Part shown: piece after piece, positions 5,403 to 25,543 of the stretch
How the letters are laid out: the number at the start of each line of letters is the position of its first letter
Position numbering within the stretch: the stretch's first letter is position 1
Origin: Gynuella sp.
GTDB taxonomy: Bacteria; Pseudomonadota; Gammaproteobacteria; Pseudomonadales; Natronospirillaceae
DNA length: 32,000 bases
Assembly (NCBI GenBank): GCA_028282465.1
Contig: JANQHX010000021.1
Span: 2,437 to 34,436 of the forward strand
Direction: 5' to 3'
Notes under the pieces: generated by a model
Database searches by the model: none
Seen by the model: only the letters and a program-made list of their open reading frames with translations
What the model was told of the DNA's origin: nothing
Program-made: the position numbers and the translations under genes

Positions 5403-7433
5403 TTAATCCAAGTCTTCACAATCATCTATGCCTGCAATAAGGGTGGCAGGCAATGCTCCACGAATACCTTCAACGTCTTCACAATTCAAACCAGTACCAG
5501 AAGCTTTTAACAATTTCAGTTGAGTTAACGACTCAATAGGAGTCAGATCAGCTGAAACATTGGATGACTCTATATCCAATTCTTCCAGACGATTCAGACC
5601 AGTTAAATCATCTAGGTTATTAATAGTTAGATGATTGAGCTTTAAGACTTGCAGCTGACTGAATTGACGAATAAAACTCAAATCAGAAACTGGTGTAGAT
5701 AAAATATCCAAGTATTTAATATTGGTTAATGTTTCCATTACAGAAGCGTCAACAAAGTCATAGCTCACATTCCAAATACTTAAAGATTCCAATTGCGAAA
5801 GACCCCTTAGTGGCTCTGGGCTTTCTATGCCGATAAATTCCAAATTCAGCGTTTGCAATTCAGCCATGTCTTTTAAACTTGAAGCATCTATTTTCCGTGA
5901 GTTAGAAAAACCATAAGCATTTGGTCTTAATGTTAAAGATCCTACTTGGTCCATATCTGCGAGAAAACCTAGACCTGTATAGGTACCAGTGTCATTCATG
6001 GCATAGGTTAATTCCAGGATATTTAAGCTGTCTAACTTTGGTAAGGCATTTTTAAGCCACTCTTCTTCATGAAACTCTATCACGAGTTTTTCTAAGTGAT
6101 CTTTCATGCCTTCAAGTGTTGAGGCGCTATTTTGGCTCAACTTAAAAGCATATAAGTCCAACAGAGTTAGGTTTTTTAGCCCCGACAGTGGCGAAATATC
6201 AAGTTCAGTGCTGCTAAAACCTCCATTTGTATAAACCAGCGAGATCAGTTCACTCATGTTAGCCAGATGGCTAAGATCCATCGGGGCTTCTAAATATTCT
6301 AAATCCAAAAATCTCATCTTGGTAAGCCCAGCTAAATTTACCAATGCTTGATCAGTGGTATTGCTTCCTAGCTTATTTAATTCAAGTGATTCCAATTCTG
6401 TTAGTGAACGCAGTGGAATTAGGGCGTCATCTAACAGCTCGTTTACTCCAAGGTTATTCTCGCTCAACGACAGTGACTCAAGCTGAGTCATGGAGGTTAA
6501 AGGAGTAATATCCTGAATTTGATTTCTTGATAACCATAAAGAACTTAGGTGAGTTAATCCGCCTATACCAGATAAATCATGAATTAAATTATCACTGGCT
6601 GATAGACTCGTCAGATTTGAGAATGCCAATAATGAATCAAGAGATTCAAATTGGTTTTGGGAAATATTAATTATCTGTAAAGATACTTGAGAGTCTTCAA
6701 GCTGGATTTCGGATATCTGGTTATTACTGATATCAAGCAATTTCAGGCTAGATAACCCAGGTAGGTTAACTGCAGGCCCTAATTCATTGCTATCTAGTTC
6801 AAGACTTTCCAATGCTGAAAGACCTGATAATCCTGTTACACCTTCAATATCGTTATCGCTGAGATACAGTGATGTTAGTTTAGAGTTACTTTCAAAAGAT
6901 GGCAGAGTTTCAATACGGTTGCTTTCAGCATAAAGGGTTTCTAGCTCTGGCTTATTTCTTAATGAGGCGATGCTTTTCAATTTGTTTTGCGCGAGATCAA
7001 CGATTGTAAGTTGTGAAAGATTCTCTAACGCATCGATAGACGTTACTGCATTGCCATATAGATGTAATTCTTTCAGCTGGGTCAGTTCAGCCAAAGGGGA
7101 TAAGTCTGTGACGGTATTAAGCGGGTCAACTTGATCTTCAAAAATATAGTTGAGATGGTTGTTCATCATAAGGTGTTCTAAATTCACAAATACTTCAATT
7201 CCTGAAATAGTTTTCACCCCTTTTTGTCGACAACGAATTTCGGTGACATCTTCAATGCTAGACCAGCCTTTCGATGCAGCGGTTGAAGAAATACACTGTT
7301 TAAACGCGTCATCTGGTATGTCTAGTTCTGAAATAAATTCAGGCGCTTGAGGAGTATTTGAATCATTTGACTCGTTGTTACAACCCATTAGGGTAACAAC
7401 TAATATCAGGGGAAGAATGGATCTAAATTTCAC
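5403..7433 (-). CDS. Leucine-rich-repeat (internalin-like) lipoprotein
   Basis: Signal peptide with lipobox LMGC (MKFRSILPLILVVTLMGCNN). Roughly 20-25 consecutive units of about 22 residues of type LxxLxxLxLxxNxIxDIxxL run through most of the 676 aa. Confidence 0.8.
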   Translation of the reverse strand: MKFRSILPLILVVTLMGCNNESNDSNTPQAPEFISELDIPDDAFKQCISSTAASKGWSSIEDVTEIRCRQKGVKTISGIEVFVNLEHLMMNNHLNYIFEDQVDPLNTVTDLSPLAELTQLKELHLYGNAVTSIDALENLSQLTIVDLAQNKLKSIASLRNKPELETLYAESNRIETLPSFESNSKLTSLYLSDNDIEGVTGLSGLSALESLELDSNELGPAVNLPGLSSLKLLDISNNQISEIQLEDSQVSLQIINISQNQFESLDSLLAFSNLTSLSASDNLIHDLSGIGGLTHLSSLWLSRNQIQDITPLTSMTQLESLSLSENNLGVNELLDDALIPLRSLTELESLELNKLGSNTTDQALVNLAGLTKMRFLDLEYLEAPMDLSHLANMSELISLVYTNGGFSSTELDISPLSGLKNLTLLDLYAFKLSQNSASTLEGMKDHLEKLVIEFHEEEWLKNALPKLDSLNILELTYAMNDTGTYTGLGFLADMDQVGSLTLRPNAYGFSNSRKIDASSLKDMAELQTLNLEFIGIESPEPLRGLSQLESLSIWNVSYDFVDASVMETLTNIKYLDILSTPVSDLSFIRQFSQLQVLKLNHLTINNLDDLTGLNRLEELDIESSNVSADLTPIESLTQLKLLKASGTGLNCEDVEGIRGALPATLIAGIDDCEDLD

Positions 7434-8886: not shown

Positions 8887-11091
8887 ATGTTAAAAAAAAT
8901 TCTGCGTAATCATCAAGCGGTTGTACTTGGGTTACTATTTACTGCCTTAACCTGTTGGTGGCAGTTGCATAATGACCCCCGCGAGCCGTCATTTCTAAAC
9001 CGTCTGGATTACATCCTCTACGACTGGCGGCTTAACTCCACTGGCTTTGCCAACAAACACCCTGACCACAATATTCTTATTGTAGACATAGACGAACGCA
9101 GTCTTAAGGTAGAAGGGCAGTGGCCCTGGGCCAGAACCAAGGTTGCAAAGCTGGTGCAGAAACTCTCAGAGCAAGGGGCCATTGTAGTCTCCTTCGACGT
9201 ACTGTTTTCTGAGCCAGAGCAGCATCCCTTGGAATTTATCTCTAATCTGGCTGAAGCCGAACCAGAGCTGTTAGCTCAATTAGAACAGTTTCGACAACAA
9301 TCAGATGGCGACCAACTGCTGGCACAAGCCTTTCAGCAAATGGACGTAGTACTAAGCTATTTACTCAGAGAAGAGCCAAACACAGTGGGTGCCCTGGGTC
9401 CCATTGTGGAAGAAATGACGGCAGAGCTCTCCAGCCGGAGCATTCTTCTCAAGGCTAATGGCTACACCGGCAATATTCCATTACTGGCCGACAGCGCTAT
9501 TTCCAGCGGCTTTTTTAACCCCACCCCCGACCCAGATGGGGTGATTCGCAGCGTGCCTTTGGTGTGGCGAATAGGTGATAAGGTGTATCCGTCACTAGCG
9601 CTGGCAACTGCCATGACCTATCTGTTTCAGGATGAAATCCATATAAAAAGAGTGGCGGTCGGCGACTTGGATTTTGTCGAAGGCATTCAATTTACCAAAA
9701 AGCTTATTAAAACCGACTCTCAAGCCAGGGTGATTGTGCCCTACATAGGCCCCAGAGATTCCTACACCTATGTGTCGGCCACCGATGTCTTAAATGACCA
9801 GGTGGATCTCTCTATTATGGAAAACGCCGTGGTAATGGTGGGCACCACAGCAGTGGGGTTATTCGATCTGAGAACCACACCGGTGGGCACTGAATACCCA
9901 GGAGTAGAAGTGCACGCCAATGTAGTGAATGCTCTTATGTCTGGTGATTTTCCCTATGCCCCAGATTGGAGTGACGCTGCAGTATTTGTTTTTCTATTAC
10001 TCATCGGCATTATTTTCTCTTTTGTGTTGCCAAAGTTTGGCCCAGTGGTGTTATTTTTATTTTCAGTGTTTGTACTGGTGATTTTAATCATCACCAATTT
10101 TTGGCTCTGGCAAGAACATAAACTGGCCTTGCCGCTAGCCAGCAGTTTAATTCTGTTATTTACCCTCAGCGTCATCAATTTAGTCGAAGGTTTTTGGCGT
10201 TCTACCCAAAGCCGAAGAGAAGTCACCGAAATGTTTGGCCAGTACGTGCCCCGAGCTCATATTGACCATATGCTAGAAGCGCCAGATGACTATGGTTTTG
10301 ACGGCGAAAGTAAAGAGCTCACAGTGTTGTTTTCTGACATTAGAAGCTTCACCACCATTTCTGAAAAGCTGTCGGCCATTGAATTAAAATCCTTATTAAA
10401 TCGCTACTTCACTCCCATTACCGAAATTATTTTTAATAACCGAGGCACCATCGACAAATACGTCGGCGACATGGTGATGGCATTTTGGGGCGCACCTTTA
10501 GACGATGAAAATCATGCCGAAAACGCTCTAAAAGCCACCATGGAAATGCTCGAAAAAATAGAAGCCTTAAAACCCGAATTTGTGGCAGACGGCTTACCAG
10601 AAGTGAATGTGGGTATTGGTTTAAATACCGGCCCCATGAACGTAGGCGATATGGGTTCAAACTTTCGCCGGGCTTATACCGTGTTAGGTGACGCTGTTAA
10701 TCTTGGTTCAAGATTAGAAAGCCTAACTAAATTTTACGGCGTGCAATGTTTAGTAGGGCCAGACACCAAAGACCTATGCCCCAATTATGCATTTCGCTTT
10801 GTAGATAAAATAATAGTGAAAGGCAAAGACGAACCCATTCAAGCCTGGGAGCCTTTGTGCCTAGAAAAAGATTTATCAGAAGATTGGCAAACCGAACTTA
10901 AACAATTTGAACAAGCCTATGAAAACTATGCTAACCAAAACTGGCAAGATGCTATTGAGCAACTGACACAATTAACAACCACTAGCCCAAGGCCATTTTT
11001 GTATCAAGTTTATTTAGACCGCATTGAAAGTTTAAAAGCACAAGACCTGCCTGAAGATTGGGATGGCACTTTTAGGCATACTTCGAAATAA
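8887..11091 (+). CDS. CHASE2 sensor domain-containing adenylate/guanylate cyclase (class III)
   Basis: N-terminal TM, a periplasmic region of about 330 aa, then a cluster of TM helices (residues ~360-440). A class III cyclase domain follows (LTVLFSDIRSFTTISE, YVGDMVMAFWGAP, GIGLNTGPMNVGDMGS, YTVLGDAVNLGSRLES). Confidence 0.85.
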   Translation: MLKKILRNHQAVVLGLLFTALTCWWQLHNDPREPSFLNRLDYILYDWRLNSTGFANKHPDHNILIVDIDERSLKVEGQWPWARTKVAKLVQKLSEQGAIVVSFDVLFSEPEQHPLEFISNLAEAEPELLAQLEQFRQQSDGDQLLAQAFQQMDVVLSYLLREEPNTVGALGPIVEEMTAELSSRSILLKANGYTGNIPLLADSAISSGFFNPTPDPDGVIRSVPLVWRIGDKVYPSLALATAMTYLFQDEIHIKRVAVGDLDFVEGIQFTKKLIKTDSQARVIVPYIGPRDSYTYVSATDVLNDQVDLSIMENAVVMVGTTAVGLFDLRTTPVGTEYPGVEVHANVVNALMSGDFPYAPDWSDAAVFVFLLLIGIIFSFVLPKFGPVVLFLFSVFVLVILIITNFWLWQEHKLALPLASSLILLFTLSVINLVEGFWRSTQSRREVTEMFGQYVPRAHIDHMLEAPDDYGFDGESKELTVLFSDIRSFTTISEKLSAIELKSLLNRYFTPITEIIFNNRGTIDKYVGDMVMAFWGAPLDDENHAENALKATMEMLEKIEALKPEFVADGLPEVNVGIGLNTGPMNVGDMGSNFRRAYTVLGDAVNLGSRLESLTKFYGVQCLVGPDTKDLCPNYAFRFVDKIIVKGKDEPIQAWEPLCLEKDLSEDWQTELKQFEQAYENYANQNWQDAIEQLTQLTTTSPRPFLYQVYLDRIESLKAQDLPEDWDGTFRHTSK

Positions 11092-11099
11092 ATAGTTCT

Positions 11100-14039
11100 T
11101 TAAGATTCATAGCGTGTTTCTATCAGTTTTCCTTTTAGATTGCTCAAATAGACTTGGTAGTATGACTCCATAAGTTCAGCTAGTTTTTCATATTCGTCAT
11201 TGCGTCCAAGTTGATAGCCCGCAGCAAAGTTTACAAAGTCCAGGTCTTTTAATTGCTGAACCATCACCTGATCAAGAAAATCAAACCATCCTTTGATTGA
11301 AGCCGATACCTCACAAGAGAAAGCATCGAACATTTCTTTGGCAGAATTAAATCCTATTCGGACATAATTGTTTCCAATTATTTGAAAAACGCCCATGCTT
11401 GTTGCTTGGTATGCCGCTTCTTCGTTAAGGCTACGGGCGAATTCAAATACCTCCCATTCTTTTCGTTGTTGACCATGAAAGTACTTCCAGTCTTCCTCAA
11501 CAGTTTTTCTCCATTTATGGCCTAACCAAACCTTGCTTGAGTCGTATTGAAAATGTTGGTTATATAAATCAGTGTTTGTTTTACCCCAATATTTCCAAAA
11601 TAAGTGATTTTCAAAACGTATTTTTAAACGATCTGAGTTGGTTTTATCTAGCTCTTCATCGTTAGATATCGAGCACAAAACAGCGAGGATGCAGCCTAAA
11701 TCAATTGCTGTTTTATTGCTGATTTGGAATATGAGTTTGCCGTATTTATCCCAGATAGAAGTCAGCTTGTTTATTTTATCCTTGTCCACAAAATCAGATT
11801 TTATTTCAGCAGGTTTAACCCGACTATTTTTGCCGATAGTAACTGTTAGTTTTCTTGGCCGACCCTGTTCATCCACGTTGTTTTCATCCCATTCCGCAAT
11901 GGAATCTTCATTGCCAAGGTTTTCCCAGATTTCCTTAAACATCATTAACGGGAAAATTCTGTCGTTTGTGTCTTTGCCCCAGAGCCACTTATACAATCGT
12001 GGGTCGGCTGGGTATTGGTTGCCGGGTTGGCCGGTTGAGTTGCTTCTTGCGAAGCCGGGTTGGTTTTCTGAGCAAATTATTTGGGTGTGGTATGCAGCCT
12101 CATTTTCAACCCACTCTTCAACAATGGCCGGGCCTTCCAAATCCTTGTAAAAAGTTTTTAAACACTTGCCAGTGGCTAGATCCCAGAGCTTGAGAGTGTT
12201 ATCAGTGCTTCCGGAAATGAATCGCTGGTCATCCACCATCGCCGCGCTGGTAACCGGGCCTCCATGGCCCACAAAGGTTTGTAAACAATTCCCGGTGGCC
12301 AGATCCCAGAGCTTGAGGGTGCGATCATCGCTTGCGGAAATGGCCCCCTGGTCATCCACCACCGCCACGCTGTTGATCCCGCTCCCATGGCCCACAAAGG
12401 TTTGTAAACACTGCCCAGAGGCCAGATCCCAGAATTTAAGAGTGTTATCATAGCTTCCGGAAATGGCCCGCTGGTCGCCCACCACCGCCACGCTGGTGAC
12501 CGATAGTTGATGGCCCTCAAAGGTTTGTAAACATTGAGCGGAGGCCTGATCCCAGAGCTTGAGGGTGTTATCCCAGCTGGCGGAAATAACCCGCTGGTCA
12601 TCCACCACCGCCAGACTGTTGACCGAGTGTTGATGGCCCTCAAAGGTTTGTAAGCACTGTCCGGAGGCCAGATCCCAGAGCTTGAACGTGTGATCATCGC
12701 TGGCGGAAATGACCCGCCGGTTATCCACCGCCACGCTGCTGACCCAGTCTTCATGGCCCTCAAAGGTTTTTAAACACTGTCCGGAGGCCAGCTCGAAGAG
12801 CTTGAGTGTTCTGTCATAACTGCTGGAAATAACCCGTTGGTGATCCACCACTACCACGCTGCTGACCCAGTTTTCATGGCCCTCAAAGGTTTGTAAGCAC
12901 TGTCCGGAGGCCAGATCCCAGAGCTTGAGGGTGTGATCACCACTGGCGGAAATGACCCGCTGGTCATCCACCACCGCCACGTTGGTGACCCAGTTTTCAT
13001 CCTCAAAGGTTTGTAAGCACTGTCCGGAAGCCAGATCCCAGAGCTTGAGAGTCTTATCACGGCTTGTGGAAATGACCCGCTGGTTATCTACCACCGCCAT
13101 GCTAGTGACCGAGCCTTGATGGCCCTCAAAGGTTTGTAAACACTGCCGGGAGGCCAGATCCCAGAGCTTGAGGTTAGCACGGCTTGCGGAAATGACCCGC
13201 TGGTCATCTACCACCGCCACGCTTGTAACCAGACCTCCATGGCCCTTAAAGGTTTGTAAACAATTGCCGGTGGCCAGATCCCAGAGCTTAAGGGTCTTAT
13301 CACGGCTTGCGGAAATGACCCGCTGGTCATCCACCACCGCCACGTTGGTGACTGGGCTTTTATGGCCCTCAAAGGTTTGTAAGCACTGTCCGGAGGCCAG
13401 CTCCCAGAGCGTGAGGGTCTTATCACGGCTTGCGGAAATGACCCGCTGGTCATCCACCACCGCCACGCTGCTGACCCAGTTTTCATCCTCAAAGGTTTGT
13501 AAGCACTGTCCGGATGCCAGATCCCATATCTTTAGAGTGTTATCATCGCTTCCGGAAATGACCCGCTGGTCATCCACCACCGCCACGCTGGTGACCGAGT
13601 CTCGATGGCCCTCAAAGGTTTGTAAACACTGCCGGGAGGCGAGATCCCAGAGCTTGAGGGTGTAATCATCGCTGGCGGAAATGACCTTCTGGTGATCCAC
13701 CACAGCTACGCTGGTGATCGAGGCTTGATGGCCAAGCCTAGTTAGACTTGGCAGCGATGTTTTTAGGTTAGCTGGGGTGTGCCATGGCACTCGCGTTTTT
13801 GATGTTGTGGAGTCACTTTCATTAAACCGAGCAAAATAATGCTCGGAGTAGGCCAGCGGTGTGCCCTCAAGGTTTGCCGGTGTTAAATCAAGCCCGCGAA
13901 TATAAGAACCGCTTAGATCCAGCTTGGAATAGTCCAATGTCTCAGCTCCAACAGTTGCTAAGCCGATAGGCTGAGCAGATTTGTATTCCGGGTTTATTTT
14001 TTTAACTAAAAGAGAAAGCGCCTGTGCGGTTTTATCCAT
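11100..14039 (-). CDS. WD40-repeat (13 blades) protein fused to a C-terminal DUF3380/N-acetylmuramidase-like domain
   Basis: 979 aa with no signal peptide. Residues 103-631 form 13 tandem 40/41-aa WD units (GHxxxVxSVAVVDDQRVISASxDxTLKLWDLASGQCLQTFE). Residues ~760-979 carry IRFENH, WLGHKWR, FHGQQRKEWEVF and SMGVFQIIG, about 50% identical by eye to the C-terminus of the 16202..17542 product. The ATG at 14039 overlaps the upstream KAP gene stop by 8 nt. Confidence 0.85.
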   Translation of the reverse strand: MDKTAQALSLLVKKINPEYKSAQPIGLATVGAETLDYSKLDLSGSYIRGLDLTPANLEGTPLAYSEHYFARFNESDSTTSKTRVPWHTPANLKTSLPSLTRLGHQASITSVAVVDHQKVISASDDYTLKLWDLASRQCLQTFEGHRDSVTSVAVVDDQRVISGSDDNTLKIWDLASGQCLQTFEDENWVSSVAVVDDQRVISASRDKTLTLWELASGQCLQTFEGHKSPVTNVAVVDDQRVISASRDKTLKLWDLATGNCLQTFKGHGGLVTSVAVVDDQRVISASRANLKLWDLASRQCLQTFEGHQGSVTSMAVVDNQRVISTSRDKTLKLWDLASGQCLQTFEDENWVTNVAVVDDQRVISASGDHTLKLWDLASGQCLQTFEGHENWVSSVVVVDHQRVISSSYDRTLKLFELASGQCLKTFEGHEDWVSSVAVDNRRVISASDDHTFKLWDLASGQCLQTFEGHQHSVNSLAVVDDQRVISASWDNTLKLWDQASAQCLQTFEGHQLSVTSVAVVGDQRAISGSYDNTLKFWDLASGQCLQTFVGHGSGINSVAVVDDQGAISASDDRTLKLWDLATGNCLQTFVGHGGPVTSAAMVDDQRFISGSTDNTLKLWDLATGKCLKTFYKDLEGPAIVEEWVENEAAYHTQIICSENQPGFARSNSTGQPGNQYPADPRLYKWLWGKDTNDRIFPLMMFKEIWENLGNEDSIAEWDENNVDEQGRPRKLTVTIGKNSRVKPAEIKSDFVDKDKINKLTSIWDKYGKLIFQISNKTAIDLGCILAVLCSISNDEELDKTNSDRLKIRFENHLFWKYWGKTNTDLYNQHFQYDSSKVWLGHKWRKTVEEDWKYFHGQQRKEWEVFEFARSLNEEAAYQATSMGVFQIIGNNYVRIGFNSAKEMFDAFSCEVSASIKGWFDFLDQVMVQQLKDLDFVNFAAGYQLGRNDEYEKLAELMESYYQVYLSNLKGKLIETRYES
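12147..13733 (-). repeat. Intragenic tandem repeat array (13 units of 120/123 bp) encoding the WD40 blades
   Basis: The motif AGATCCCAGAGCTTGA (or close variants) recurs near 12178, 12300, 12423, 12546, 12669, 12789, 12912, 13032, 13155, 13275, 13398, 13518 and 13641. An exact 42-nt duplicate occurs at 12987-13028 and 13473-13514. Confidence 0.9.
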
Positions 14040-15981
14040 GGTTACTATCCACTAATTGCTCTCCTAAATTTTGTATTCGCTCTAACACCCTGGTTGTTTT
14101 ATAAAATTCTGTCAGTTGAATGGCTGAAGTAATATCGGCTAAGTCTTCTAGCCATTCAATATCGGTAACCAGGGTTTCATTTGAAGTCATATATTCTTCA
14201 GACCTAAATAGCTCTAGCCATTCATGAAAAACTGGGTCTGGTAACTTTTTATGGCGCCATTCTTGTCGCCTAATAAAATCTCTTCTTGAACTTATGTCTG
14301 GCAGCATAAAACCACTTTGTAGCTCCCCCAGATCAACATTCGAAATAGTTTCTAAGTGGTCTTCATTAATGATTTGAACAGGAGCTTTATGCTTTTGAGT
14401 TTCAATAGCTTGATTTTTTAAATACAGGGCCTCGAATTGGTTTAAAGCTTCATCATCAGTAATAGGGTTAGATTTAATTTCATTACCGTGAAAGGCTGCA
14501 AGTGGGTCTATGCTGTAGCGGTTTCGTTTGGATTCACGGAGTAAGTTTTTAAACTGATGCCAAGCCAGTTGATATTCACTGACGGTTATTGGGCTGGTTG
14601 GATTCTGAGTGCCTTCCAAAGCCTCTTTATTACTTTTATCCACCTCTTCAACGATTGTCTGGGCCTCGAATCTATAACTCATTTTGCATTCAAACAACCA
14701 GTTGTATACCACTTCATTAGACCTGAGCAGGCGATATAAGCTGGAGAATTGCTGTTCTAAAATAGTAATTCTGGCTAGATGTTCTAAGTGCTGGTCATGC
14801 TGGTTAATAAATTCTTTGCCGCCTTCTAGGTTTTGAATGGTATCTCGCTTGAGTTGTATGGCTTCTGCGGCTCGAATAAGTTTTCTAGGTACAGGTGGAA
14901 TGGCTTGGTTAAATAAATTCAATAAGGGTAGATTTAATTTAGTTTCTGCATGTTTATCCTCTGGTTGTTCGTCTTGGCGATCATCTATTTGACTAGCTTT
15001 TTGGGCATCTTCTGCTTTTTCTTCAACTACAAAAAGGCTTGGGTAATGTTCAATTAAATAAGCTTGGGTTTGGTTTTGTGACCACCTAGGCAAATGAATA
15101 GGAATATGAACAATCTTTTCTAAATACTCTGCGCCGGTAATAGGTGGGCTGATATTGGAGTCTCGGTCTTTTTCTAAAAAGTAGTCTTTGTATCTATGGT
15201 TAATGCCTCGTTCAACCACTTCGTCGTCTACGGCTAGCACAAAGGCAAAATTATTAATATTTAAAAATAGTTTGATGGATTCAAGCATTTGTACTGCGTT
15301 ATCTGGCAGGCATCTGTCCAAGTCATCTACAAGTACAATAATTCTAATTTTGAGTTTATCGTCGTCAGGTGATTGGGTGAGTTGTTCAAGTGATTCAAAG
15401 GTACCGTAATACATGGACTCCATCTTTTTAGTCGCTTCATTTTTCTTAGCGTCAGAAGCTGCCGCTGATTCTAGGCTGTCTTTGCCACTGAATTTGATGA
15501 CACCAAAATCAAAACTCAAACCAGTTGCGACAGATCTCGTTAAATCAGCAATGGTTTCACCGGTTTTTATTAGCAAGGATTTAAGTTGGTCAGTAACAGC
15601 CCTTGTTAATGTCAAGGCATGGCTTTCGATCTTGCTTTGATACTTTTCTAACTGGTTTTCAATGGTTTTTAACAGAGGAATGATTAAAAAGTCTTCCTGC
15701 TCGTATTTCCAAGGGGAGAAAAACACAGGAATATTGATATGCTTTATCGAGTTGTCTTCAGTATTTGAGTCTTGCCAGATTAAATTTTCAGATTTGGAGT
15801 AGTGTTTTTCAATCTGTCTTAGGTGCCAGGTTTTACCTATGCCCCATTCACCATAAACAGACACCACCAATGCTTCACCACTGGCTTTGTGGGGAAAACT
15901 GGTATTAATAACATCACAAATGTTACTGACGATTTCGCTAGAAACATCACTGGAAACGTTAGCGGTATCCGAAACGGGCAT
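14032..15981 (-). CDS. KAP-family P-loop NTPase (soluble form)
   Basis: Walker A is VYGEWGIGKT. It is followed by FFSPWKYE, and the Walker B region is IIVLVDDLDRCLPDNAVQMLESIKLFL..FAFVLAVDDE. This is the hallmark KAP arrangement. No TM insertion is seen. A helical C-terminal region of about 330 aa has unknown function. Confidence 0.8.
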   Translation of the reverse strand: MPVSDTANVSSDVSSEIVSNICDVINTSFPHKASGEALVVSVYGEWGIGKTWHLRQIEKHYSKSENLIWQDSNTEDNSIKHINIPVFFSPWKYEQEDFLIIPLLKTIENQLEKYQSKIESHALTLTRAVTDQLKSLLIKTGETIADLTRSVATGLSFDFGVIKFSGKDSLESAAASDAKKNEATKKMESMYYGTFESLEQLTQSPDDDKLKIRIIVLVDDLDRCLPDNAVQMLESIKLFLNINNFAFVLAVDDEVVERGINHRYKDYFLEKDRDSNISPPITGAEYLEKIVHIPIHLPRWSQNQTQAYLIEHYPSLFVVEEKAEDAQKASQIDDRQDEQPEDKHAETKLNLPLLNLFNQAIPPVPRKLIRAAEAIQLKRDTIQNLEGGKEFINQHDQHLEHLARITILEQQFSSLYRLLRSNEVVYNWLFECKMSYRFEAQTIVEEVDKSNKEALEGTQNPTSPITVSEYQLAWHQFKNLLRESKRNRYSIDPLAAFHGNEIKSNPITDDEALNQFEALYLKNQAIETQKHKAPVQIINEDHLETISNVDLGELQSGFMLPDISSRRDFIRRQEWRHKKLPDPVFHEWLELFRSEEYMTSNETLVTDIEWLEDLADITSAIQLTEFYKTTRVLERIQNLGEQLVDSNHG

Positions 15982-16201
15982 CTTTAAATGAGTCCATCCT
16001 TGAGACTACATGAGTATTCAATTGCTGGCGTCTAAATTCAATGGTTTCAAACCAATAAAGTCATGAGTTTTTCATTGATCCAAAACTAATTTGGTTGATG
16101 TTTGCTGAGCTAGTATGGGTATCTGCGCATTATCCGTTAGCAGTCAAAAAATAAGCCTGCTAAATTGCTATGACTGAAAGAAAATACAAGGAAATGTGTT
16201 C

Positions 16202-17542
16202 ATGTTTGCCAAGGTAACCGCGTCTGCGCTCAATGTACGATCTGTGCCCAAGGCCTCAGGGAAAATTTTGGGTGTCCTTCACAAGGATCAAGTCATCCGC
16301 ATAGAAGGTGAGGAGGGCAGTTGGAGCCAATTAGCTTATATGGGTCAAACTGGATTTGTGGCAACAGAGTATTTGACGTTTGAATTTGAAACGGATCAAT
16401 TAATGGGCAAAGTGACTGCCTCTTCACTGAATGTCAGGCCCGACCCTTCAACCTCGAATGAGCCTATTACAAAACTGGATAATGGGGTAGAGGTGAGCGT
16501 TTTAAAGCAGGTGGAGGATTGGTACGAAATAGCACTGCCGGATTCCACAGGTTTTGTGTCAGCCAAGTTCATTGACGTCAGTATCCCTGACCAACCCAGC
16601 TTGATTTTGGTGAATGCTAGTAATTTAAATGTTCGTTCTGGGCCTTCAACTGACCATGAAATTATCGGTTCAGTTGACCAGGGCACTCAATTAATCAAAG
16701 TGTCAGACAATAATGATTGGATTGAAGTTCGGTTTAATGATGAACCTGGGTATGTGCATTCTGATTTTGTAAAACCATTTAGTGGCACTGCCAAGAAACC
16801 AAGGGCAAGACGTACCCGTCTAATCAATTCAACAAGCGCCTCATCGACTGACAGCGCATTGGAACCAGACACTCAGCTGTTAATTGAAGGGGACAAAACC
16901 CAGAAAAAGGTGGCTAGAACCTGGAATAGCTTTGGTGGCATTTTACAAAAGCTCAGTTCAGATTTTGGTTTTGAAGCTGCCAGCGCAATAGCTGTGCTTT
17001 GTGTTGAAAGTTCGGGTAAGGGTTTTCAAAAAAGTAATGACAACCGCATGATCATTCGTTTTGAAAACCACAAGTTTGACGGTTATTGGGGTGAACAGAA
17101 TTCAGAATTATTTGATCAGCATTTCAAATACAACAAGAAGGGTAAGAAATGGCTGGGTCATGAGTGGCGAGAAACTACCAACGATGAGTGGAGTCGCTTT
17201 CATGGCAAACAAAGAAAGGAATGGGAGGTGTTTAATTTCGCAAGACACTTAGACAGTGATGCGGCCATGATGTCTATTAGCATGGGAGCTCCCCAGATTA
17301 TGGGTTTTCATTATAAACGACTGAATTACTCATCAGTGGCTGAAATGTTCGATCAGTTTTCCACTGACATGGCGGCGCAAATTGAAGGATTGTTTCGTTT
17401 TCTGGATAAACGAATGATAAAGGCATTAGTGGAAAAAGACTTTGTGGAGTTTGCTCGCTGGTATAATGGTGCTGGACAAAAACAAAAATATGGCGGCTGG
17501 ATTATGGATCATTATCAGGCCTTTAAATCTTTAGCGAATTAA
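16202..17542 (+). CDS. Three SH3b domains fused to a DUF3380/N-acetylmuramidase domain (endolysin-like)
   Basis: Three SH3_3-like units are present (ALNVRSVP...GFVATEYL; SLNVRPDP...GFVSAKFI; NLNVRSGP...GYVHSDFV). After a basic/Ser-rich linker the domain carries AVLCVESSGKGF, IRFENH, SMGAPQIMG and FARWYNG. The track starts at GTG 16196. ATG 16202 has better spacing to AAGGA (16187-16191). No signal peptide was found. Confidence 0.8.
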   Translation: MFAKVTASALNVRSVPKASGKILGVLHKDQVIRIEGEEGSWSQLAYMGQTGFVATEYLTFEFETDQLMGKVTASSLNVRPDPSTSNEPITKLDNGVEVSVLKQVEDWYEIALPDSTGFVSAKFIDVSIPDQPSLILVNASNLNVRSGPSTDHEIIGSVDQGTQLIKVSDNNDWIEVRFNDEPGYVHSDFVKPFSGTAKKPRARRTRLINSTSASSTDSALEPDTQLLIEGDKTQKKVARTWNSFGGILQKLSSDFGFEAASAIAVLCVESSGKGFQKSNDNRMIIRFENHKFDGYWGEQNSELFDQHFKYNKKGKKWLGHEWRETTNDEWSRFHGKQRKEWEVFNFARHLDSDAAMMSISMGAPQIMGFHYKRLNYSSVAEMFDQFSTDMAAQIEGLFRFLDKRMIKALVEKDFVEFARWYNGAGQKQKYGGWIMDHYQAFKSLAN

Positions 17543-20274: not shown

Positions 20275-20952
20275 TTAGTCTCGTCTTACTCGAATCAGTA
20301 TTCGTCGGTTCTGAGTTCTGCGTTCTTCAACAGGAATGGTTTCGTCTGTGACCTTGGGGCGCGAATCAGCATAGCCAGAAGCTTTCATTTGCATTGGGTC
20401 TAAGCCCTGTTCTTGAAAATACTTCACTATGTTTGTGGCGCGATTGGAACTGAGCTCCCAGTTGGAATCGTATTTCTCATTGTGAATGGGAACATCATCT
20501 GTATGACCTTCAATTTCGACAATGTAATAACCTTGAAGATTGTTCGAAACCACTTTCGCTACATCATTCAACAGAGGTAATGCCTGTGGTTGTATATCGG
20601 CACTGCCAGAATCGTAAAGCGGAAAGTTAGTAAACTCCAGTAATACGCCTTTGTCATCAATGGTGACATTTGCAAACTGTTCCAGATCTCGAGTTTCGAT
20701 AACGGATTGCCAACCCGCTTCGATATCTCGCAATGGAGTTTGAACCTTTGTGTTGCTGATGGCTTCAGCTAAGCCTTCTTTTAACGCTTCAATTTTGCCT
20801 TGATTTAAATCTGAGACGCTCATGATCATGACAAAAAAAGCAAGCAACAAAGTGATCACATCGGAATAGGTCACTAACCAACTGTCTTGCTCTCCTTCAC
20901 CCCCTAGCCTTGGCCGACGTCGCTCTGCTCCAGGCCGTGTGCGAAGATTCAT
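20275..20952 (-). CDS. MotB/PomB-like stator subunit with OmpA-type peptidoglycan-binding domain
   Basis: The TM segment WLVTYSDVITLLLAFFVMIMSV contains the conserved channel Asp. The C-terminal OmpA-like motifs are IEGHTDDVPI, SNWELSSNRATNIVKYF and NRRILIRV. The start codon directly abuts the upstream stop (TAAATG). Confidence 0.85.
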   Translation of the reverse strand: MNLRTRPGAERRRPRLGGEGEQDSWLVTYSDVITLLLAFFVMIMSVSDLNQGKIEALKEGLAEAISNTKVQTPLRDIEAGWQSVIETRDLEQFANVTIDDKGVLLEFTNFPLYDSGSADIQPQALPLLNDVAKVVSNNLQGYYIVEIEGHTDDVPIHNEKYDSNWELSSNRATNIVKYFQEQGLDPMQMKASGYADSRPKVTDETIPVEERRTQNRRILIRVRRD

Positions 20953-21750
20953 TTAAGATTGCTCGCTTGCCATGTCGTAGTAGGCTTTGGGGTTAATTAA
21001 TGCGTTAAGTCGGTCTTGTATGGTGAGGGCGTCGGCCTTTTCCATCATGAATACAAACCCGTCACACCAGAGTTGATGCCGTAAATATTCCCCTTCCATT
21101 TTTTTAAAAATATGAACGGCGGCAGGTCTGAAAATCAACTGAGCCAGCATGACGCCATAGAGAGTGGTGATTAAGGCCAACGCAAGACCTTTGCCTAAGG
21201 CAGTTATGTCCCCATCCATGTTATCTAACATGATGATTAAGCCGATGATAGTACCAACCATACCAAAGGCCGGTGAGTAACTAGCCATGGTGTGTAACAC
21301 TTTTGCCGATTGAGTTCTTCGAGAAAAATCCGCTTCAATGCGGTTAGATATTAAATAGCGAATCTCTTTAGAATCATAGCCCGCAGTTATTTGTTCTAAA
21401 CAATAAGTTAGAAACTCGTTCTTTTTTTCTTTGTTGGTAAGGGAATTTGAAACCGCTGTGAGACCTTGTTGTCGATAGATTTGGCTCCATTCAATAAAAC
21501 GTTTGATGTCTGACCTCAGGGTGCTGTGGTTGTCGCGCTCTTCACTGAAAGTTCGAAAAAGAGCAAAAATAGCGGTGACAAACTCCTTCATGTTGTAACT
21601 AATAATGGTCGCCGCTGCTGTTCCACCCAACACCATAGCAACACTGGTGGGGCTAATAAAAATAATGAAGTTATCGGTATTCGAGGTGATCGCATAAAAG
21701 AATAATGCGATGGCACCTATGATGCCGATGAGTGTGCTAATAAATGTCAT
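20953..21750 (-). CDS. MotA/PomA-like proton/sodium channel stator subunit
   Basis: 265 aa with four TM segments in the MotA/PomA arrangement (two N-terminal, a cytoplasmic loop, two C-terminal). It carries YSPAFGMVGTIIGLI and ALITTLYGVMLAQLIF. It has an ATGA overlap with the upstream gene. Confidence 0.85.
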   Translation of the reverse strand: MTFISTLIGIIGAIALFFYAITSNTDNFIIFISPTSVAMVLGGTAAATIISYNMKEFVTAIFALFRTFSEERDNHSTLRSDIKRFIEWSQIYRQQGLTAVSNSLTNKEKKNEFLTYCLEQITAGYDSKEIRYLISNRIEADFSRRTQSAKVLHTMASYSPAFGMVGTIIGLIIMLDNMDGDITALGKGLALALITTLYGVMLAQLIFRPAAVHIFKKMEGEYLRHQLWCDGFVFMMEKADALTIQDRLNALINPKAYYDMASEQS

Positions 21751-23687
21751 TCAATGGTTGCCAAATCTTGCATACTGAATTTACCGGTTTTTATTAATTC
21801 ACGAATATGGTGAACAATGGTACGACGAGATTGCTCAACGAGGTTATCGTCCGGTTGAGAGTCTGTGTATTGAAGTTGATCTTGTACCGCAGCTCGTACC
21901 TTTGAAGGCAGTGCTTCTAGAATATATTTCACTAACTGCGGGTTGGCATTTGCGAGCGCCGAGGTCAATTGCTTTCTGTCTACTTCCCGAAGAATTTCAC
22001 CTAGAATTTCAGGTGGTGTTCTGCCTAGATCATTAAAGGTGTAGTAAACCTGTCGTAAGCGATAATAGGTTTCTGGTGAGTCCTGCTTAATTCGGTCTAG
22101 CAACTGATGCTCGTCAGAAGAGGGTAAGTTGTCGAGCATATCAATCAACAGAGCGGTGCCATCGGTATTGAGGTTTTCAAAGCTAGGCACGTTTAAAGAT
22201 TTTTTGGCAAGTCTGTCTGCGACATCTCTAAACGTGGCAATGGGAAATTCATTAAATTGTCCAATTTCGTAAGCAATTTGGCCCTGCTGTGCCGGTGCTA
22301 AATGTTTTAGCAAAGCCGCAGCCCGTGTGGCAGAGACTTGAGACAGTACCAAGGCTTTGATTCTGGGTTCTTCATCTTGCAGAAGGTAAACAATTTGGCC
22401 ATCAGCCAGTCGATCTAAAAATTTAAATGGCTTAGAAGGATGATGCTCCGGAAAGGATGCCTGATCTCGTAGTAATACATGCCTTAGTGCGGTTAACTCG
22501 GAGTGAACTTCATCTGGTGTTAATTGGTTTTGTTCCAGAAATTGAGTGATCTCATAAATCTGTCCAGTGCTGATGGACGGGAATAAGCCTCTGAACAGAG
22601 AGCCCCCTAGAGTCTGGTAGGCGGATGCTAGGGTTTTTAAATAGTTACCACCCAATAGTAAATCTTCAACCCGTCCACTGGCCCGTTCTGGATTACCAAG
22701 GCCAGCGGTAATAATTTCTTGTTTTAGAGATCGGATGTCGGCAACCACTGGTGCTTCAGAGGTTTCGTTGCTGATAGCACTAGGTACGCTAATGGGCGCC
22801 TGGTTTACTGTTGAGTCTGGCGGTAGTGTATATTTAGGCTTTCTAAAAATGAGGATCAGCAACAGTAAAAAAATAGACGCCGCAAAAGCCAGTGCAACCC
22901 AAGGTACCCAAGTTTGCTGCCACCAGTTTAACTCTTCGCTAGTACTATTGGGGTCCAGCGCTTCCGGCATTCTGGTGTCTGGTTCGCTGTTCAATTCATC
23001 AGAAATGGATTCAAAAGGCGTTTTTACCAGAACAAGGCGGTCACCACGAAAGTAATTCAGTTTCAGCTTACTCTCTAAAAGTGTTCTGACAAATTCTTCC
23101 TGAGAGAGACTAATGGTTTCGTCAATTAATATGGTTACCACCAGGTTTTCTATTCTGGAGAAAATGTCCTGACTAGTTTCCAGTATTTCTTCAACGGGCT
23201 CGCCGCTGTCTTCAAAATTAACAAGACTTTCCCGCATGGATTTTAAACTTTCCAGTACCGGTGAATCCGTGGGTGCTGGTACTTCAACGGATGCATCTTC
23301 ACCAAAGGGTAATCCTGGTAGTTGAATGCTTTCTGGCGTGGAGGATTGTTGTTGTTCCAGCGTCTTTTGTTCTAGTTCCTCGATAAGAGCATTGAGGTTT
23401 TGTAATTTTTGTTCTTGAGCTGGGCTTAAAATATAGTCAGGTGCCGCTTTTGGAATGGTACCTCGCAACCGTTGAATACGGGCATCAATATTGATGATGA
23501 AACGATCATTACCCAAGTAGGCTCGAAGGTCTCTGGTAATTCGGTTTTCCATCTGCCCGATGAATTCCATTTCTGTCATCACGTCTTGTTCAGCAGAAAT
23601 GAACTCGTCAACACTCCAAGCTTTGGCGCTTAGCAAAACCAACAAACTGACGCTGACCCATAAAAAGTATTTGTTCATGTTCATCAT
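21747..23687 (-). CDS. Bitopic membrane protein: periplasmic N-terminal half, TM, and FliG-like (middle + C-terminal domain) cytoplasmic half
   Basis: It has a signal/anchor (YFLWVSVSLLVLLSAKAW), an acidic periplasmic region of about 230 aa, and a TM at residues ~256-281 followed by RKPK. Residues ~420-640 show FliG-type motifs: IVYLLQDEEPRIKALVLSQVSATRAAALLKHLAPAQQGQIAYEI (compare LLxxEHPQxxAxxLSxL), VYYTFNDL (compare MFxFxDL) and ILREVDRKQLTSALANA..LPSKVRAAV. Similarity was judged by eye only. Confidence 0.65.
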   Translation of the reverse strand: MMNMNKYFLWVSVSLLVLLSAKAWSVDEFISAEQDVMTEMEFIGQMENRITRDLRAYLGNDRFIINIDARIQRLRGTIPKAAPDYILSPAQEQKLQNLNALIEELEQKTLEQQQSSTPESIQLPGLPFGEDASVEVPAPTDSPVLESLKSMRESLVNFEDSGEPVEEILETSQDIFSRIENLVVTILIDETISLSQEEFVRTLLESKLKLNYFRGDRLVLVKTPFESISDELNSEPDTRMPEALDPNSTSEELNWWQQTWVPWVALAFAASIFLLLLILIFRKPKYTLPPDSTVNQAPISVPSAISNETSEAPVVADIRSLKQEIITAGLGNPERASGRVEDLLLGGNYLKTLASAYQTLGGSLFRGLFPSISTGQIYEITQFLEQNQLTPDEVHSELTALRHVLLRDQASFPEHHPSKPFKFLDRLADGQIVYLLQDEEPRIKALVLSQVSATRAAALLKHLAPAQQGQIAYEIGQFNEFPIATFRDVADRLAKKSLNVPSFENLNTDGTALLIDMLDNLPSSDEHQLLDRIKQDSPETYYRLRQVYYTFNDLGRTPPEILGEILREVDRKQLTSALANANPQLVKYILEALPSKVRAAVQDQLQYTDSQPDDNLVEQSRRTIVHHIRELIKTGKFSMQDLATIE

Positions 23688-24443
23688 TTAGTTAAATAGA
23701 ACTTCCAGACCCTTTCGAACATCTTCCATGTTGGGATCAATTTCTAATGCTTGTTCCCAAGCCGTTTTGGCTTCTTCTCTGCGGCCCATTTTGTAATAAA
23801 TACTGCCCTTTAAGGCATAGGCCAGTGCAAATTCAGGCTGTTGATTGATTGCCTGTAATGTCGCGTTCAATGCACCTAGATAGTCTCGCCGGTAAAACAG
23901 TTGTTGTGCCAATACAATACTGTCGTTAGCAGTCATTCCTGACGATGGCGTCGGGTTTAATGTTGTCTCGGTAATGCCATCTGCATTGGTTGTTTCATCA
24001 ATAGGTAACTCGCGATTACTTGAATTTGGTTGTTCATTCTCTCCCATATCCATGGACTTCAGTTTTTCTGCAACTGCACCTAATGGATCATCAGTCTCTT
24101 CCGATTCAGGTAAGTCCATAACAAAGGCAACGTTTTCTTCGCCAGTATCTAGAATTAAGGAGATGTTATAACCCGGACCATGACGGTCTATGGTGATGAC
24201 TCCGAAGTCATCCTTGCCTCTCTGGTTGAGCTGGGTGGGTTCAATTGGCGAATTCGCTTGTAGAATTTGCGATTCTGTGGGGCTAGTTAATTCAGTGTTT
24301 GCGCTGCTATCGCTAATGGTGACGTCTTCGGTTTTAGACGTTTGTTCAGAAGCCGATGTGCCGTTGTTTTGTCCAAACATGGAACAGGCTGATATCAAAA
24401 ACATGGATGTCATTGTCAGCAAAAAAGGAGTCAGTCTTCTCAT
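23688..24443 (-). CDS. TPR-repeat lipoprotein
   Basis: The preferred start is ATG 24443 (MRRLTPFLLTMTSMFLISACS, lipobox ISAC), which overlaps the upstream stop by 1 nt (TAATG). The track start at 24524 would overlap the upstream gene by 82 nt. A Ser/Thr/Glu-rich linker is followed by C-terminal TPR units (YALKGSIYYKMGRREEAKTAWEQALEIDPN). Confidence 0.7.
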   Translation of the reverse strand: MRRLTPFLLTMTSMFLISACSMFGQNNGTSASEQTSKTEDVTISDSSANTELTSPTESQILQANSPIEPTQLNQRGKDDFGVITIDRHGPGYNISLILDTGEENVAFVMDLPESEETDDPLGAVAEKLKSMDMGENEQPNSSNRELPIDETTNADGITETTLNPTPSSGMTANDSIVLAQQLFYRRDYLGALNATLQAINQQPEFALAYALKGSIYYKMGRREEAKTAWEQALEIDPNMEDVRKGLEVLFN

Positions 24444-25543
24444 TAGAATCGATACCCCAAAGTAATGTCGTAACTTGCCCCGCCAAATTCTGAAGATTCT
24501 TCTAGGCCATCTACTTCTTTCCATTCCACTTCTTGTTCAGGTAAATAAATAACACCTAAATCAATGTAGCCGTTTCTTGTAAAAGGAAATTCGATTCCGT
24601 ATTTGTAGACGAGAGATTGTTGTTCTTTAAAAAATGCCTGGCCCAGTTCCAAATACATGAGTGTTGGCACCCATTGCTCCAACGCGGATATATTAACTTC
24701 CACTCGGCCTTCAATAACAAAGCCCAGCATGTCGAAATAATCTGTTTGGGCAAGATTTGAAAAAGTTTCGAAACCAAGACCATAACTAATGTCTTCGTTG
24801 AGTTCTGAATGCTCTCTGCGTCTAATACCGAATGTGGTCACGCTTGATAATTGACGGTCAGAAACGCCAGTGCCTTCTCGTTCTGCACTGAATCCCCATG
24901 CTCCTACAAATAATTCCCAGTCGACTCGGTCAAACTCTTCTTCATTCAGTTCTTCGTCCCGTTTAGCTAATTCGATTGGGTTTGTTTTTCTAGCGTATTG
25001 CCGAGTCCAAACAACATGGTTATCTGTGGCATCAACCAGTCTCATGTCGACAGTAAATTTTTCTTCATACACATTTGCGCTCCACATAAAAAACCCATCC
25101 ACTTGAAGCTTTCTGGCTAGGTTGCGCATGTCTTTGTTACTTTCTATCGCTTGATTAATACTGAGTTGATCGTTTTGAAGTTTTACTTGAATCAATTTGC
25201 ATTCAACACACTCGGTGACCAAAAACTTTTCGGTATCAATCAACTTTTTAATGATCATGCCTTCGATCATGGTTTCTGTTGACTTAGGTATTTTTTTATA
25301 AAGTCTGTCTTCTGTGTGATACAAGGCTACTCGCATCACAGGTATTTCCAAATCCGCAAGCTCTTGCACAGGTAGTGTGTTTTCATCTTCCATGAGTTCT
25401 GCAAACCCGTTGTAGTAACGAGCCTGTGTTTCCACCAAATTACTGGTCTGCCCAGTTTCAGCCTGAACATAGTTCAAAGTAGAAAATAAAATTGTTACCC
25501 ATGTGGCAAAAAATTGCCGCTCGAGACTGGCTTCAGCCTGCAT
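24443..25543 (-). CDS. Putative secreted/outer-membrane protein (first gene of the stator-rotor operon)
   Basis: The N-terminal hydrophobic segment ends in VQA-E. The C-terminal half has alternating aromatic/hydrophilic patterns and ends GYRF, the terminal Phe typical of beta-barrel OMPs. I recognise no family. Confidence 0.45.
   Translation of the reverse strand: MQAEASLERQFFATWVTILFSTLNYVQAETGQTSNLVETQARYYNGFAELMEDENTLPVQELADLEIPVMRVALYHTEDRLYKKIPKSTETMIEGMIIKKLIDTEKFLVTECVECKLIQVKLQNDQLSINQAIESNKDMRNLARKLQVDGFFMWSANVYEEKFTVDMRLVDATDNHVVWTRQYARKTNPIELAKRDEELNEEEFDRVDWELFVGAWGFSAEREGTGVSDRQLSSVTTFGIRRREHSELNEDISYGLGFETFSNLAQTDYFDMLGFVIEGRVEVNISALEQWVPTLMYLELGQAFFKEQQSLVYKYGIEFPFTRNGYIDLGVIYLPEQEVEWKEVDGLEESSEFGGASYDITLGYRF

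Follow-up and report, generated by a model that had tools for sequence, protein, structure and literature searches.

The 32,000-nucleotide stretch of Gynuella sp. contig JANQHX010000021.1 analysed here (hereafter, the window) carries on its minus strand a gene for a soluble KAP-family P-loop NTPase of 649 amino acids (aa; 14032..15981; Pfam PF07693, 127 bits), followed by a gene for a 979-aa partner protein with WD40 repeats and a muramidase-like domain (11100..14039; open reading frame [ORF] list and Pfam). On the plus strand, across a divergent intergenic spacer of 214 bp (15982..16195, by ORF coordinates), lies a gene for a 448-aa protein with three SH3b domains and a PF11860 muramidase domain (16196..17542; Pfam). 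The original prediction, made from the sequence alone, had read these genes as a candidate split NTPase/sensor/effector module; all three ORFs were confirmed at these coordinates, and Pfam searches returned the expected families KAP_NTPase, WD40, Muramidase and SH3_3. As judged by comparison across genomes, the KAP NTPase gene and the WD40 gene are a real, conserved two-gene module that has no existing name, and no paper on a KAP and WD40 operon was found in the literature.

The two minus-strand genes overlap by 8 nt (ATGGATAA, 14032..14039, minus strand, sequence read directly). The KAP frame ends AAC CAT GGA TAA and the next frame begins ATG GAT AAA, such that the partner starts inside the stop region of the KAP gene. 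The overlap indicates translational coupling, and both the overlap and the co-translation originally proposed agree with what was found elsewhere. We read the sequence downstream of the KAP gene in L002, L004/L005, L085 and L086 (from look-ups), L006-L009, L011-L016, L023 and L027 (from one-genome-per-species contigs) and L087 (from metagenomes). In 16 of the 16 other readable loci of this KAP clade, the next same-strand gene encodes the N-terminal motif of the partner, and in 15 of them no gap separates its start from the KAP stop codon (overlapping or abutting, -10 to 0 nt); the minus-strand pair is thus conserved together in other genomes. The hosts belong to the Gammaproteobacteria, the Burkholderiales (Betaproteobacteria) and the Campylobacterota. 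The genomic neighbours of the pair differ at every locus and include genes for Astacin, SLFN_AlbA_2, EAL, ABC, histidine kinase, SelR, aldehyde dehydrogenase and JetD_C-like proteins, a variety compatible with a mobile islet. Synteny of the SDR gene was considered and rejected, the SDR beside the closest KAP homologue (L086) showing no similarity to that of the window.

The N-terminal region of the partner (residues 1-96; 13752..14039, minus strand; motif TAQALSLLVKKINP...SGSYIRGLD) has no Pfam match. Alignment A3 of 16 partners gives the consensus A-x-E-L-L-x-R-K-x-N-P...Y-L-R-G-L-D, in which N16, P17, R48 and G49 are invariant. A 59-residue profile of this motif, derived from the same alignment, recovered only two short fragments from 5.8 billion proteins in a word-index search that could not reach the family. 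The motif also occurs in a fusion protein from a myxobacterial genome bin, P0095, in which a single chain runs from the KAP C-terminal region through AIEWVCRKFNPPERPSIR, corresponding to the partner motif, into WD40 repeats, indicating that the KAP and partner products are functionally tied.

Propeller repeats follow the N-terminal motif in every partner copy readable beyond it. The eight complete partners carry either 13-14 WD40 blades or an equal span of divergent propeller-like repeats and end in a domain of approximately 100 aa with the motif L-P-A-D-P-x-L-Y-x-W-L-x-F, which is present in every copy readable that far; alignment A5 of the eight other partners extends the post-propeller motif to (R/S)DG...LPADPxLYxWLxF...EW. 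All three elements are held by the window protein, namely the N-terminal motif, a propeller within the 13-14-blade range (13 WD40 blades, residues 97-630; 12150..13751, minus strand; Pfam WD40 and repeat alignment) and the PADPxLYxWLxF domain (residues 631-750; 11790..12149, minus strand; motif YPADPRLYKWLW, alignment A5). This conserved domain of approximately 120 aa had been overlooked in the original domain list of the 979-aa protein and, on the evidence of the alignment, is the normal C-terminal domain of the family; its model, computed without alignment depth, has a predicted local distance difference test (pLDDT) value below 50. The other features listed at that time, namely 13 blades, a short N-terminal region, a C-terminal DUF3380/PF11860 domain and no signal peptide, were all reproduced.

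The repeat array itself has the appearance of a variable surface. Pfam recognises 13 WD40 stretches, and dissection resolves 13 units, each 40-41 aa long, and a closing CLKTF strand, a number of predicted blades that is enough for two propellers. The repeats share a mean pairwise nucleotide identity of 80%, and their amino-acid variation is concentrated in columns 8-10, 27 and 29, three of which fall just after GH and two at the x positions of S-x-D-x-T. In the L005 partner, for which 11 repeat units were analysed, mostly the same columns vary, together with column 12. We take these columns, known here from alignment alone, to be top-face contact positions of WD40 propellers. The logic of an NTPase switch joined to a repeat sensor, as first proposed, is plausible, with the variable repeat positions confined to five columns. 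The G+C content at third codon positions (GC3) is 0.648 in the WD40 array; the parts of the gene before and after it have 0.417 (N-terminal) and 0.394 (C-terminal), and the KAP gene has 0.349. Because GC3 differs between the array and the rest of the gene, the repeat arrays would seem to be exchanged or homogenised separately. In L011, the GC3 contrast is reversed (repeats 0.30, rest 0.51-0.59), and in L013 the N-terminal part stands at 0.57 and the repeats at 0.82. The count of 13 repeats in the window rests on the current assembly, and a short-read assembly could have collapsed repeats; an independent Logan assembly of the same sample is broken within the WD40 repeats. By exact look-up, the 979-aa protein is absent from a collection of 15 billion proteins that does include the neighbouring proteins of the same NCBI contig.

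Assignment of the 649-aa protein to the KAP family was corroborated by a KAP_NTPase score of 127 bits against a cut-off of 20 and by the presence of both a Walker A motif (GEWGIGKT, residues 44-51) and a Walker B motif (VLVDDLDRC, residues ~214-224, with DDLDRC at residue 219). The protein is soluble, as originally described, with no hydrophobic segment: its maximal Kyte-Doolittle value over a 19-residue window is 1.36, and the transmembrane insert is lacking. Aravind and colleagues reportedly noted in 2004 that many classical KAPs have transmembrane helices inserted in the NTPase domain, a feature that is said not to be universal. In the model of the window protein, the insert between Walker A and Walker B (residues 100-202) instead forms long soluble helices. 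Approximately 60 of the 120 best protein clusters are full-length relatives (590-740 aa, 93-98% query coverage). The C-terminal helical region (approximately residues 400-649) is specific to this clade, and an exhaustive search of 1.84 billion representatives with the C-terminal 250 aa returned 17 representatives in total, comprising only KAPs of the same clade (594-736 aa) plus two short fragments. A metagenome scan with the KAP alignment revealed no close relative among at least 600 matches listed, the best being 32% identical.

The model of the KAP protein (pLDDT 78.6) has as its top match among solved structures RdrA of RADAR (8hr8, E = 2e-5, TM score 0.33-0.36, 14-16% identity), followed by AAA+ proteins of the ORC/Cdc6 type, whereas NRC2, a plant nucleotide-binding leucine-rich repeat receptor (NLR), was matched only at E = 0.095. 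RdrA forms rings that recruit its partner. RADAR resembles the pair in being a two-gene operon headed by a KAP-like ATPase and differs in that its partner, RdrB, is an adenosine deaminase rather than a WD40 propeller; no deaminase gene is present in the window. The NTPase domain (residues ~15-350) can also be aligned to those of QatA, PifA and PDC-S20 (E = 1e-13 to 7.6e-31; PADLOC and NCBIfam). These models cover that domain only and score far below their cut-offs, in line with the earlier remark that the gene combination was not recognised as a named defence system: against the QatA equivalog NF041923, the window KAP reaches 107 bits versus a 600-bit cut-off, its C-terminal half is unmatched and no QatBCD neighbours are found. 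To our knowledge, the Qat, PifA and PDC-S20 systems have no WD40 partner.

The pair shares its combination of NTPase switch and repeat sensor with STAND (signal transduction ATPases with numerous domains) and NLR receptors, such as Avs, bNACHT and Apaf-1-like WD40 STANDs. Unlike those receptors, which carry NACHT or NB-ARC domains, it contains a KAP NTPase and no recognised effector or effector-associated adaptor domain; the only STAND-type match in Pfam was nSTAND_NTPase5 at 17.1 bits, against a cut-off of 34. In conflict systems, an NTPase switch and its repeat sensor (WD40, TPR or FGE-sulfatase) frequently lie on neighbouring genes, with adaptor regions linking them (PMC7159879, PMC12803255). 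KAP NTPases go unmentioned in the text of Kaur et al. 2020 (PMC7159879), and a 2026 survey of STAND proteins places WD40 and FGE sensors on STAND proteins but describes none on KAPs (PMC12803255). Sensor fusions do occur on KAP chains outside the clade: many of the second-tier relatives (P0057-P0099) are proteins of 800-1240 aa with a C-terminal FGE-sulfatase/C-type-lectin domain (PF03781) or DUF1566, and, among the best 120 clusters, no sequences from outside the clade are nearer than the KAP-FGE-sulfatase/C-type-lectin proteins (31-38% identity over 53-89% of the query). In multicellular bacteria, KAP-lectin proteins have been listed among the targets of diversity-generating retroelements (Dore et al. 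2024, PMC10907252). They resemble the pair in that a KAP NTPase is joined to a variable sensor; by contrast, their sensor has a lectin fold, is diversified by retroelements and sits on the same chain, whereas the pair has its sensor, a WD40 array, on a separate protein, with the variation lying between repeats. Among loci L020-L047, the ORF directly after the KAP gene in L034 and an ORF 89 nt downstream of it in L045 share an N-terminal stretch (NLWxAFxKAxKGK / NLWTAWNKAVSK), which may derive from a reverse transcriptase and hint at retroelement diversification.

With an NTPase and a WD40 sensor split over two genes, and no active effector identified by domain searches and alignment, the pair may well work as a ligand-sensing, NLR-like NTPase switch in a conflict setting, a reading that we hold to be somewhat probable. 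The KAP protein and its partner would form a complex, with the N-terminal region of the partner (residues 1-96) presumably docking onto the KAP protein; the propeller face bearing the variable residues would recognise a protein or other ligand, and ligand binding would control NTP-dependent assembly of the KAP protein, as in NLR/STAND or RADAR-type conflict systems. This defence reading rests on homology to defence ATPases, a variable repeat sensor, a patchy and non-syntenic distribution and related sensor fusions.

Genomic context was assessed by scanning 116 flanking ORFs from 13 pair loci (within about 8 kb of the pairs) and 22 window ORFs. The flanking ORFs belong mostly to housekeeping Pfam families, and their PADLOC matches are mostly to generic domains (ABC, histidine kinase, MotB, cyclase); the few possible defence genes comprise two kinase-type PD-T4-6, two RT_UG29 and two MkoA matches. 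PADLOC detected no system among the window proteins, and PHROGs searches assigned the other 22 of them only to uncharacterised or generic families (ABC transporter, FabG-like reductase). The sole immediate neighbours with a defence flavour are a JetD_C/DUF2399-like gene in L008 (14648-15679) and a gene for an SLFN_AlbA_2 and HATPase_c_4 protein in L005 (8181-9308).

Several of these results weigh against a conflict role. No consistent defence island was found at the 13 pair loci or in the window, the neighbours of the pair being mostly housekeeping genes; IMG/VR viral contigs contain distant KAPs only and no member of the clade; and most pair members have no recognisable effector domain or enzyme. 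Both proposed contacts, complex formation and docking, are deduced from the coupling of the genes and one fusion protein, P0095. The closest KAP among the best 120 clusters is only 46% identical, and the lineage of the window is poorly sampled. The pair could instead be a housekeeping or regulatory NTPase-scaffold, acting for example in assembly or signalling, with the muramidase fusion an accidental and decaying addition. Metabolic, transport and signalling genes flank nearly all loci, and the missing effector domain and the absence from viral contigs point the same way, but such a function fits less well with the patchy distribution and lack of conserved synteny, the near-identical repeats with a few hypervariable columns, the relatives fused to diversified lectin-type sensors and the fact that the solved and named relatives, RdrA, QatA and PifA, are all defence proteins. 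We consider a non-conflict role unlikely.

The most unusual part of the window partner is its C terminus, which runs 229 residues past the normal C-terminal domain into a PF11860/DUF3380 muramidase-like domain (residues 751-979; 11103..11789, minus strand; Pfam E = 3.5e-26). This domain is absent from all other partners that are complete (eight) or readable at the C terminus. Within the sequences searched, the muramidase fusion appears as one instance, in this genome only. The last 359 residues had 28 matches among the 5.8 billion proteins searched, all of them stand-alone muramidases, most with SH3b domains and none with WD40 repeats. The homologue motif V-L-C-V-E-S-S-G-K-G-F corresponds to V-L-C-S-I-S-N-D-E-E-L in the fused copy, ungapped between flanking anchors in alignments of 16 and 29 sequences, with the general-acid Glu, kept in 28 of 28 homologues, replaced by Ile791 (codon 11667-11669). 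Alignment to PDB entries confirms the register of this column, which corresponds to Glu101 of AP3gp15, where the E101A mutant loses 99.4% of activity (PMC5674055), and to Glu29 of Pae87, the proposed general acid (PMC8972805). The second Glu, equivalent to Glu46 of Pae87 (PMC8972805), is kept in the fused copy (RFENH, E810), as are core residues and the cleft His and Tyr; other motifs are eroded (SISMGAPQIMGF to ATSMGVFQIIGN and YNGxGQ to YQLGRND). The domain is modelled with pLDDT >90 and matches the endolysins LysT84, Pae87 and AP3gp15 (structures 7rum, 7q4s and 5nm7). The fold of these DUF3380 endolysins is thus predicted to be intact in the fused copy, although the SH3b modules and the general-acid Glu are missing from it.

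In a distance tree, the SH3b-muramidase clade as a whole has the fused domain as its sister, on a long branch; the fused domain is 41-47% identical to clade members, compared to 54-72% identity within the clade. The adjacent SH3b-muramidase belongs to the same domain family, as the term paralog in the original prediction implied, but shares 41% identity with the fused domain, which is closer to family members in other genomes (45-47%). A recent tandem duplication of the neighbouring gene was therefore rejected as the source, the fused domain being the long-branch sister of the entire clade. Our reading is that the domain was captured from the SH3b-muramidase family and then lost catalysis and diverged fast; in this genome alone, an SH3b-endolysin catalytic domain would have been appended to the second gene of the pair and would later have lost its general-acid Glu. 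A role as a lytic effector is unlikely for a protein that has Ile791 in place of the general-acid Glu and carries no export signal. In our view, the fused domain would either bind muropeptides or a lysin-interacting protein without being catalytic, or be a relic in the course of decay.

A more specific possibility is that the dead muramidase serves as an integrated bait or sensor for cytoplasmic muropeptides set free by an attack on the wall, or for a phage protein whose normal contact is with endolysins, and reports to the KAP/WD40 switch. The confidently predicted fold and the retained core residues, E810 and cleft His and Tyr would suit such a function, as would an ORF that has stayed open across 229 codons despite loss of the catalytic Glu, and in Pae87 the peptidoglycan-binding site is separate from the catalytic cleft (PMC8972805). 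This bait is, however, a single example in all data searched, and relaxed selection with decay would account equally well for its long branch. A bait function, which would resemble the integrated decoys of plant NLRs, is conceivable but improbable.

The divergently oriented neighbour is a different kind of protein. Its three SH3_3 domains and Muramidase domain (E = 1.2e-36, Pfam) come without a signal peptide, and both catalytic Glu residues are kept (E271 in VLCVESSG and the Glu of RFENH at 288-292). The close homologues P0121, P0124 and P0127 have the same architecture, with 55-59% identity in the catalytic domain, and in three of three other genomes examined (Alteromonas, a Calditrichaeota bacterium and a third genome), a PF11351 GTA_holin_3TM gene of 142-143 aa lies 10-40 nt downstream of them. 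The three genomes are unrelated, and the loci concerned (L167, 7391-7819; L168, 7391-7822; L170, 7395-7826) are non-phage in their other content, with no surrounding phage structural genes. The SH3b-muramidase and holin combination looks like a widespread chromosomal endolysin-holin cassette. No GTA_holin_3TM homologue is present in the 32 kb of the window (best tblastn E-value 1.6), where an SDR gene occupies the expected holin position, and the window SH3b-muramidase would accordingly be classed as an orphan endolysin of this cassette family whose holin has been lost. The possibility, raised originally, that the locus is a fragment of a conventional prophage lysis cassette was rejected on finding neither a holin nor phage structural genes in the window.

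The trio has been viewed as one split NLR-like system with a peptidoglycan output or input, in which the WD40-fused muramidase or the SH3b paralog would be the lytic effector of abortive infection. Only 214 bp separate the two divergently oriented members of the PF11860 subfamily, a proximity that is probably not a coincidence; an SH3b endolysin without its usual holin could conceivably be under other control; and there is a precedent in LypABC, a CARD-NLR-like system controlling lysis mediated by gene transfer agents in Caulobacter (PMC13236601). The likeness to LypABC is conceptual only, in that an NLR-like NTPase governs host lysis in place of classical holin control, and LypABC differs from the pair in having peptidase effectors and a STAND-type ATPase. 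Against a lytic trio stand the loss of the general-acid Glu, whose equivalent in AP3gp15 is needed for nearly all activity (E101A mutant), and the location of the products. No hydrophobic segment (maximal Kyte-Doolittle value over 19 residues <1.6) and no signal-peptide-like N terminus was found in any of the three proteins; because of this, all three are predicted to be cytoplasmic, placing the cell wall out of reach. No other pair has a muramidase domain, and none of the other KAP/WD40 loci examined has a muramidase neighbour. A three-gene system is thus unsupported by synteny, because the adjacent genes differ everywhere and the muramidase neighbour occurs nowhere else. The SH3b-muramidase, proposed as a third component, belongs to a family that pairs with GTA_holin_3TM and probably lies outside the KAP/WD40 module; a lytic trio seems to us a doubtful proposition. 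Of the split module first envisaged, the pairing of NTPase and sensor stands (16 of 16 loci), whereas the muramidase effector does not. Similarly, the expected co-occurrence held for the KAP and WD40 genes, while the WD40-muramidase combination is confined to the window and the anticipated defence islands did not emerge.

The proximity of the two PF11860 members would be most simply read as a sign that the donor of the fused domain was once present at this locus, and the window SH3b-muramidase may represent the donor lineage. Taken further, the receptor could have captured a dead endolysin domain as bait for muropeptides or phage lysis proteins, or as a dock for the holin-less neighbouring endolysin, which would then come under NTPase control; this extension, drawn from analogy, is quite unlikely.

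The surroundings of the three genes are of the housekeeping type originally described, including genes for a CHASE2 cyclase, an SDR, PfkB, an ABC transporter and MotAB. The remainder of the window consists of ordinary genes, among them the ABC transporter with GldG-like auxiliary proteins, a leucine-rich repeat (LRR) protein, a methylglyoxal synthase-like protein and VanZ, as well as the CHASE2 cyclase, SDR and PfkB genes and a MotAB/FliG-like cluster. The spacer described earlier as a divergent promoter region exists (15982..16195), but a consensus scan revealed no promoter-like site inside it, and a promoter and terminator scan of the window gave no signal above shuffled expectation. The 979-aa gene and the convergent CHASE2-cyclase gene are separated by 8 nt between their ends (stop codons at 11100-11102 and 11089-11091), with no terminator-like hairpin between them (window 11089-11102). 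At 5403-7433 (minus strand), 3.7 kb from the KAP/WD40 pair, a 676-aa protein consists mostly of leucine-rich repeats (LRR_4, LRR_8; E = 9e-42) and is unusual for a bacterium. The cluster at 20275-25543 (minus strand) encodes a MotB-like protein (225 aa), a MotA/ExbB-like protein (265 aa), a 646-aa FliG_M/FliG_C protein, a TPR protein and a 366-aa protein without a Pfam match, and looks like a non-flagellar stator and FliG-like unit. Zorya was considered for the MotAB genes (20-21.7 kb) and rejected: PADLOC models of ZorB, which contain the MotB domain, match, and none of the ZorA models does.

If the pair is a sensor switch, NLR-like logic, with an NTPase and a variable repeat sensor, would reach the KAP branch of the P-loop NTPases, divided here between two genes, and the pair would offer a compact, testable system in Gamma- and Betaproteobacteria and Campylobacterota. 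If it is not defensive, it would mark the limits of inferring immunity from domain logic alone. The one-off fusion of a dead endolysin domain beside a holin-less endolysin is a natural experiment in how receptors might gain recognition or docking modules, and a captured bait or dock, if true, would give bacteria an equivalent of the integrated-decoy NLRs known from plants.

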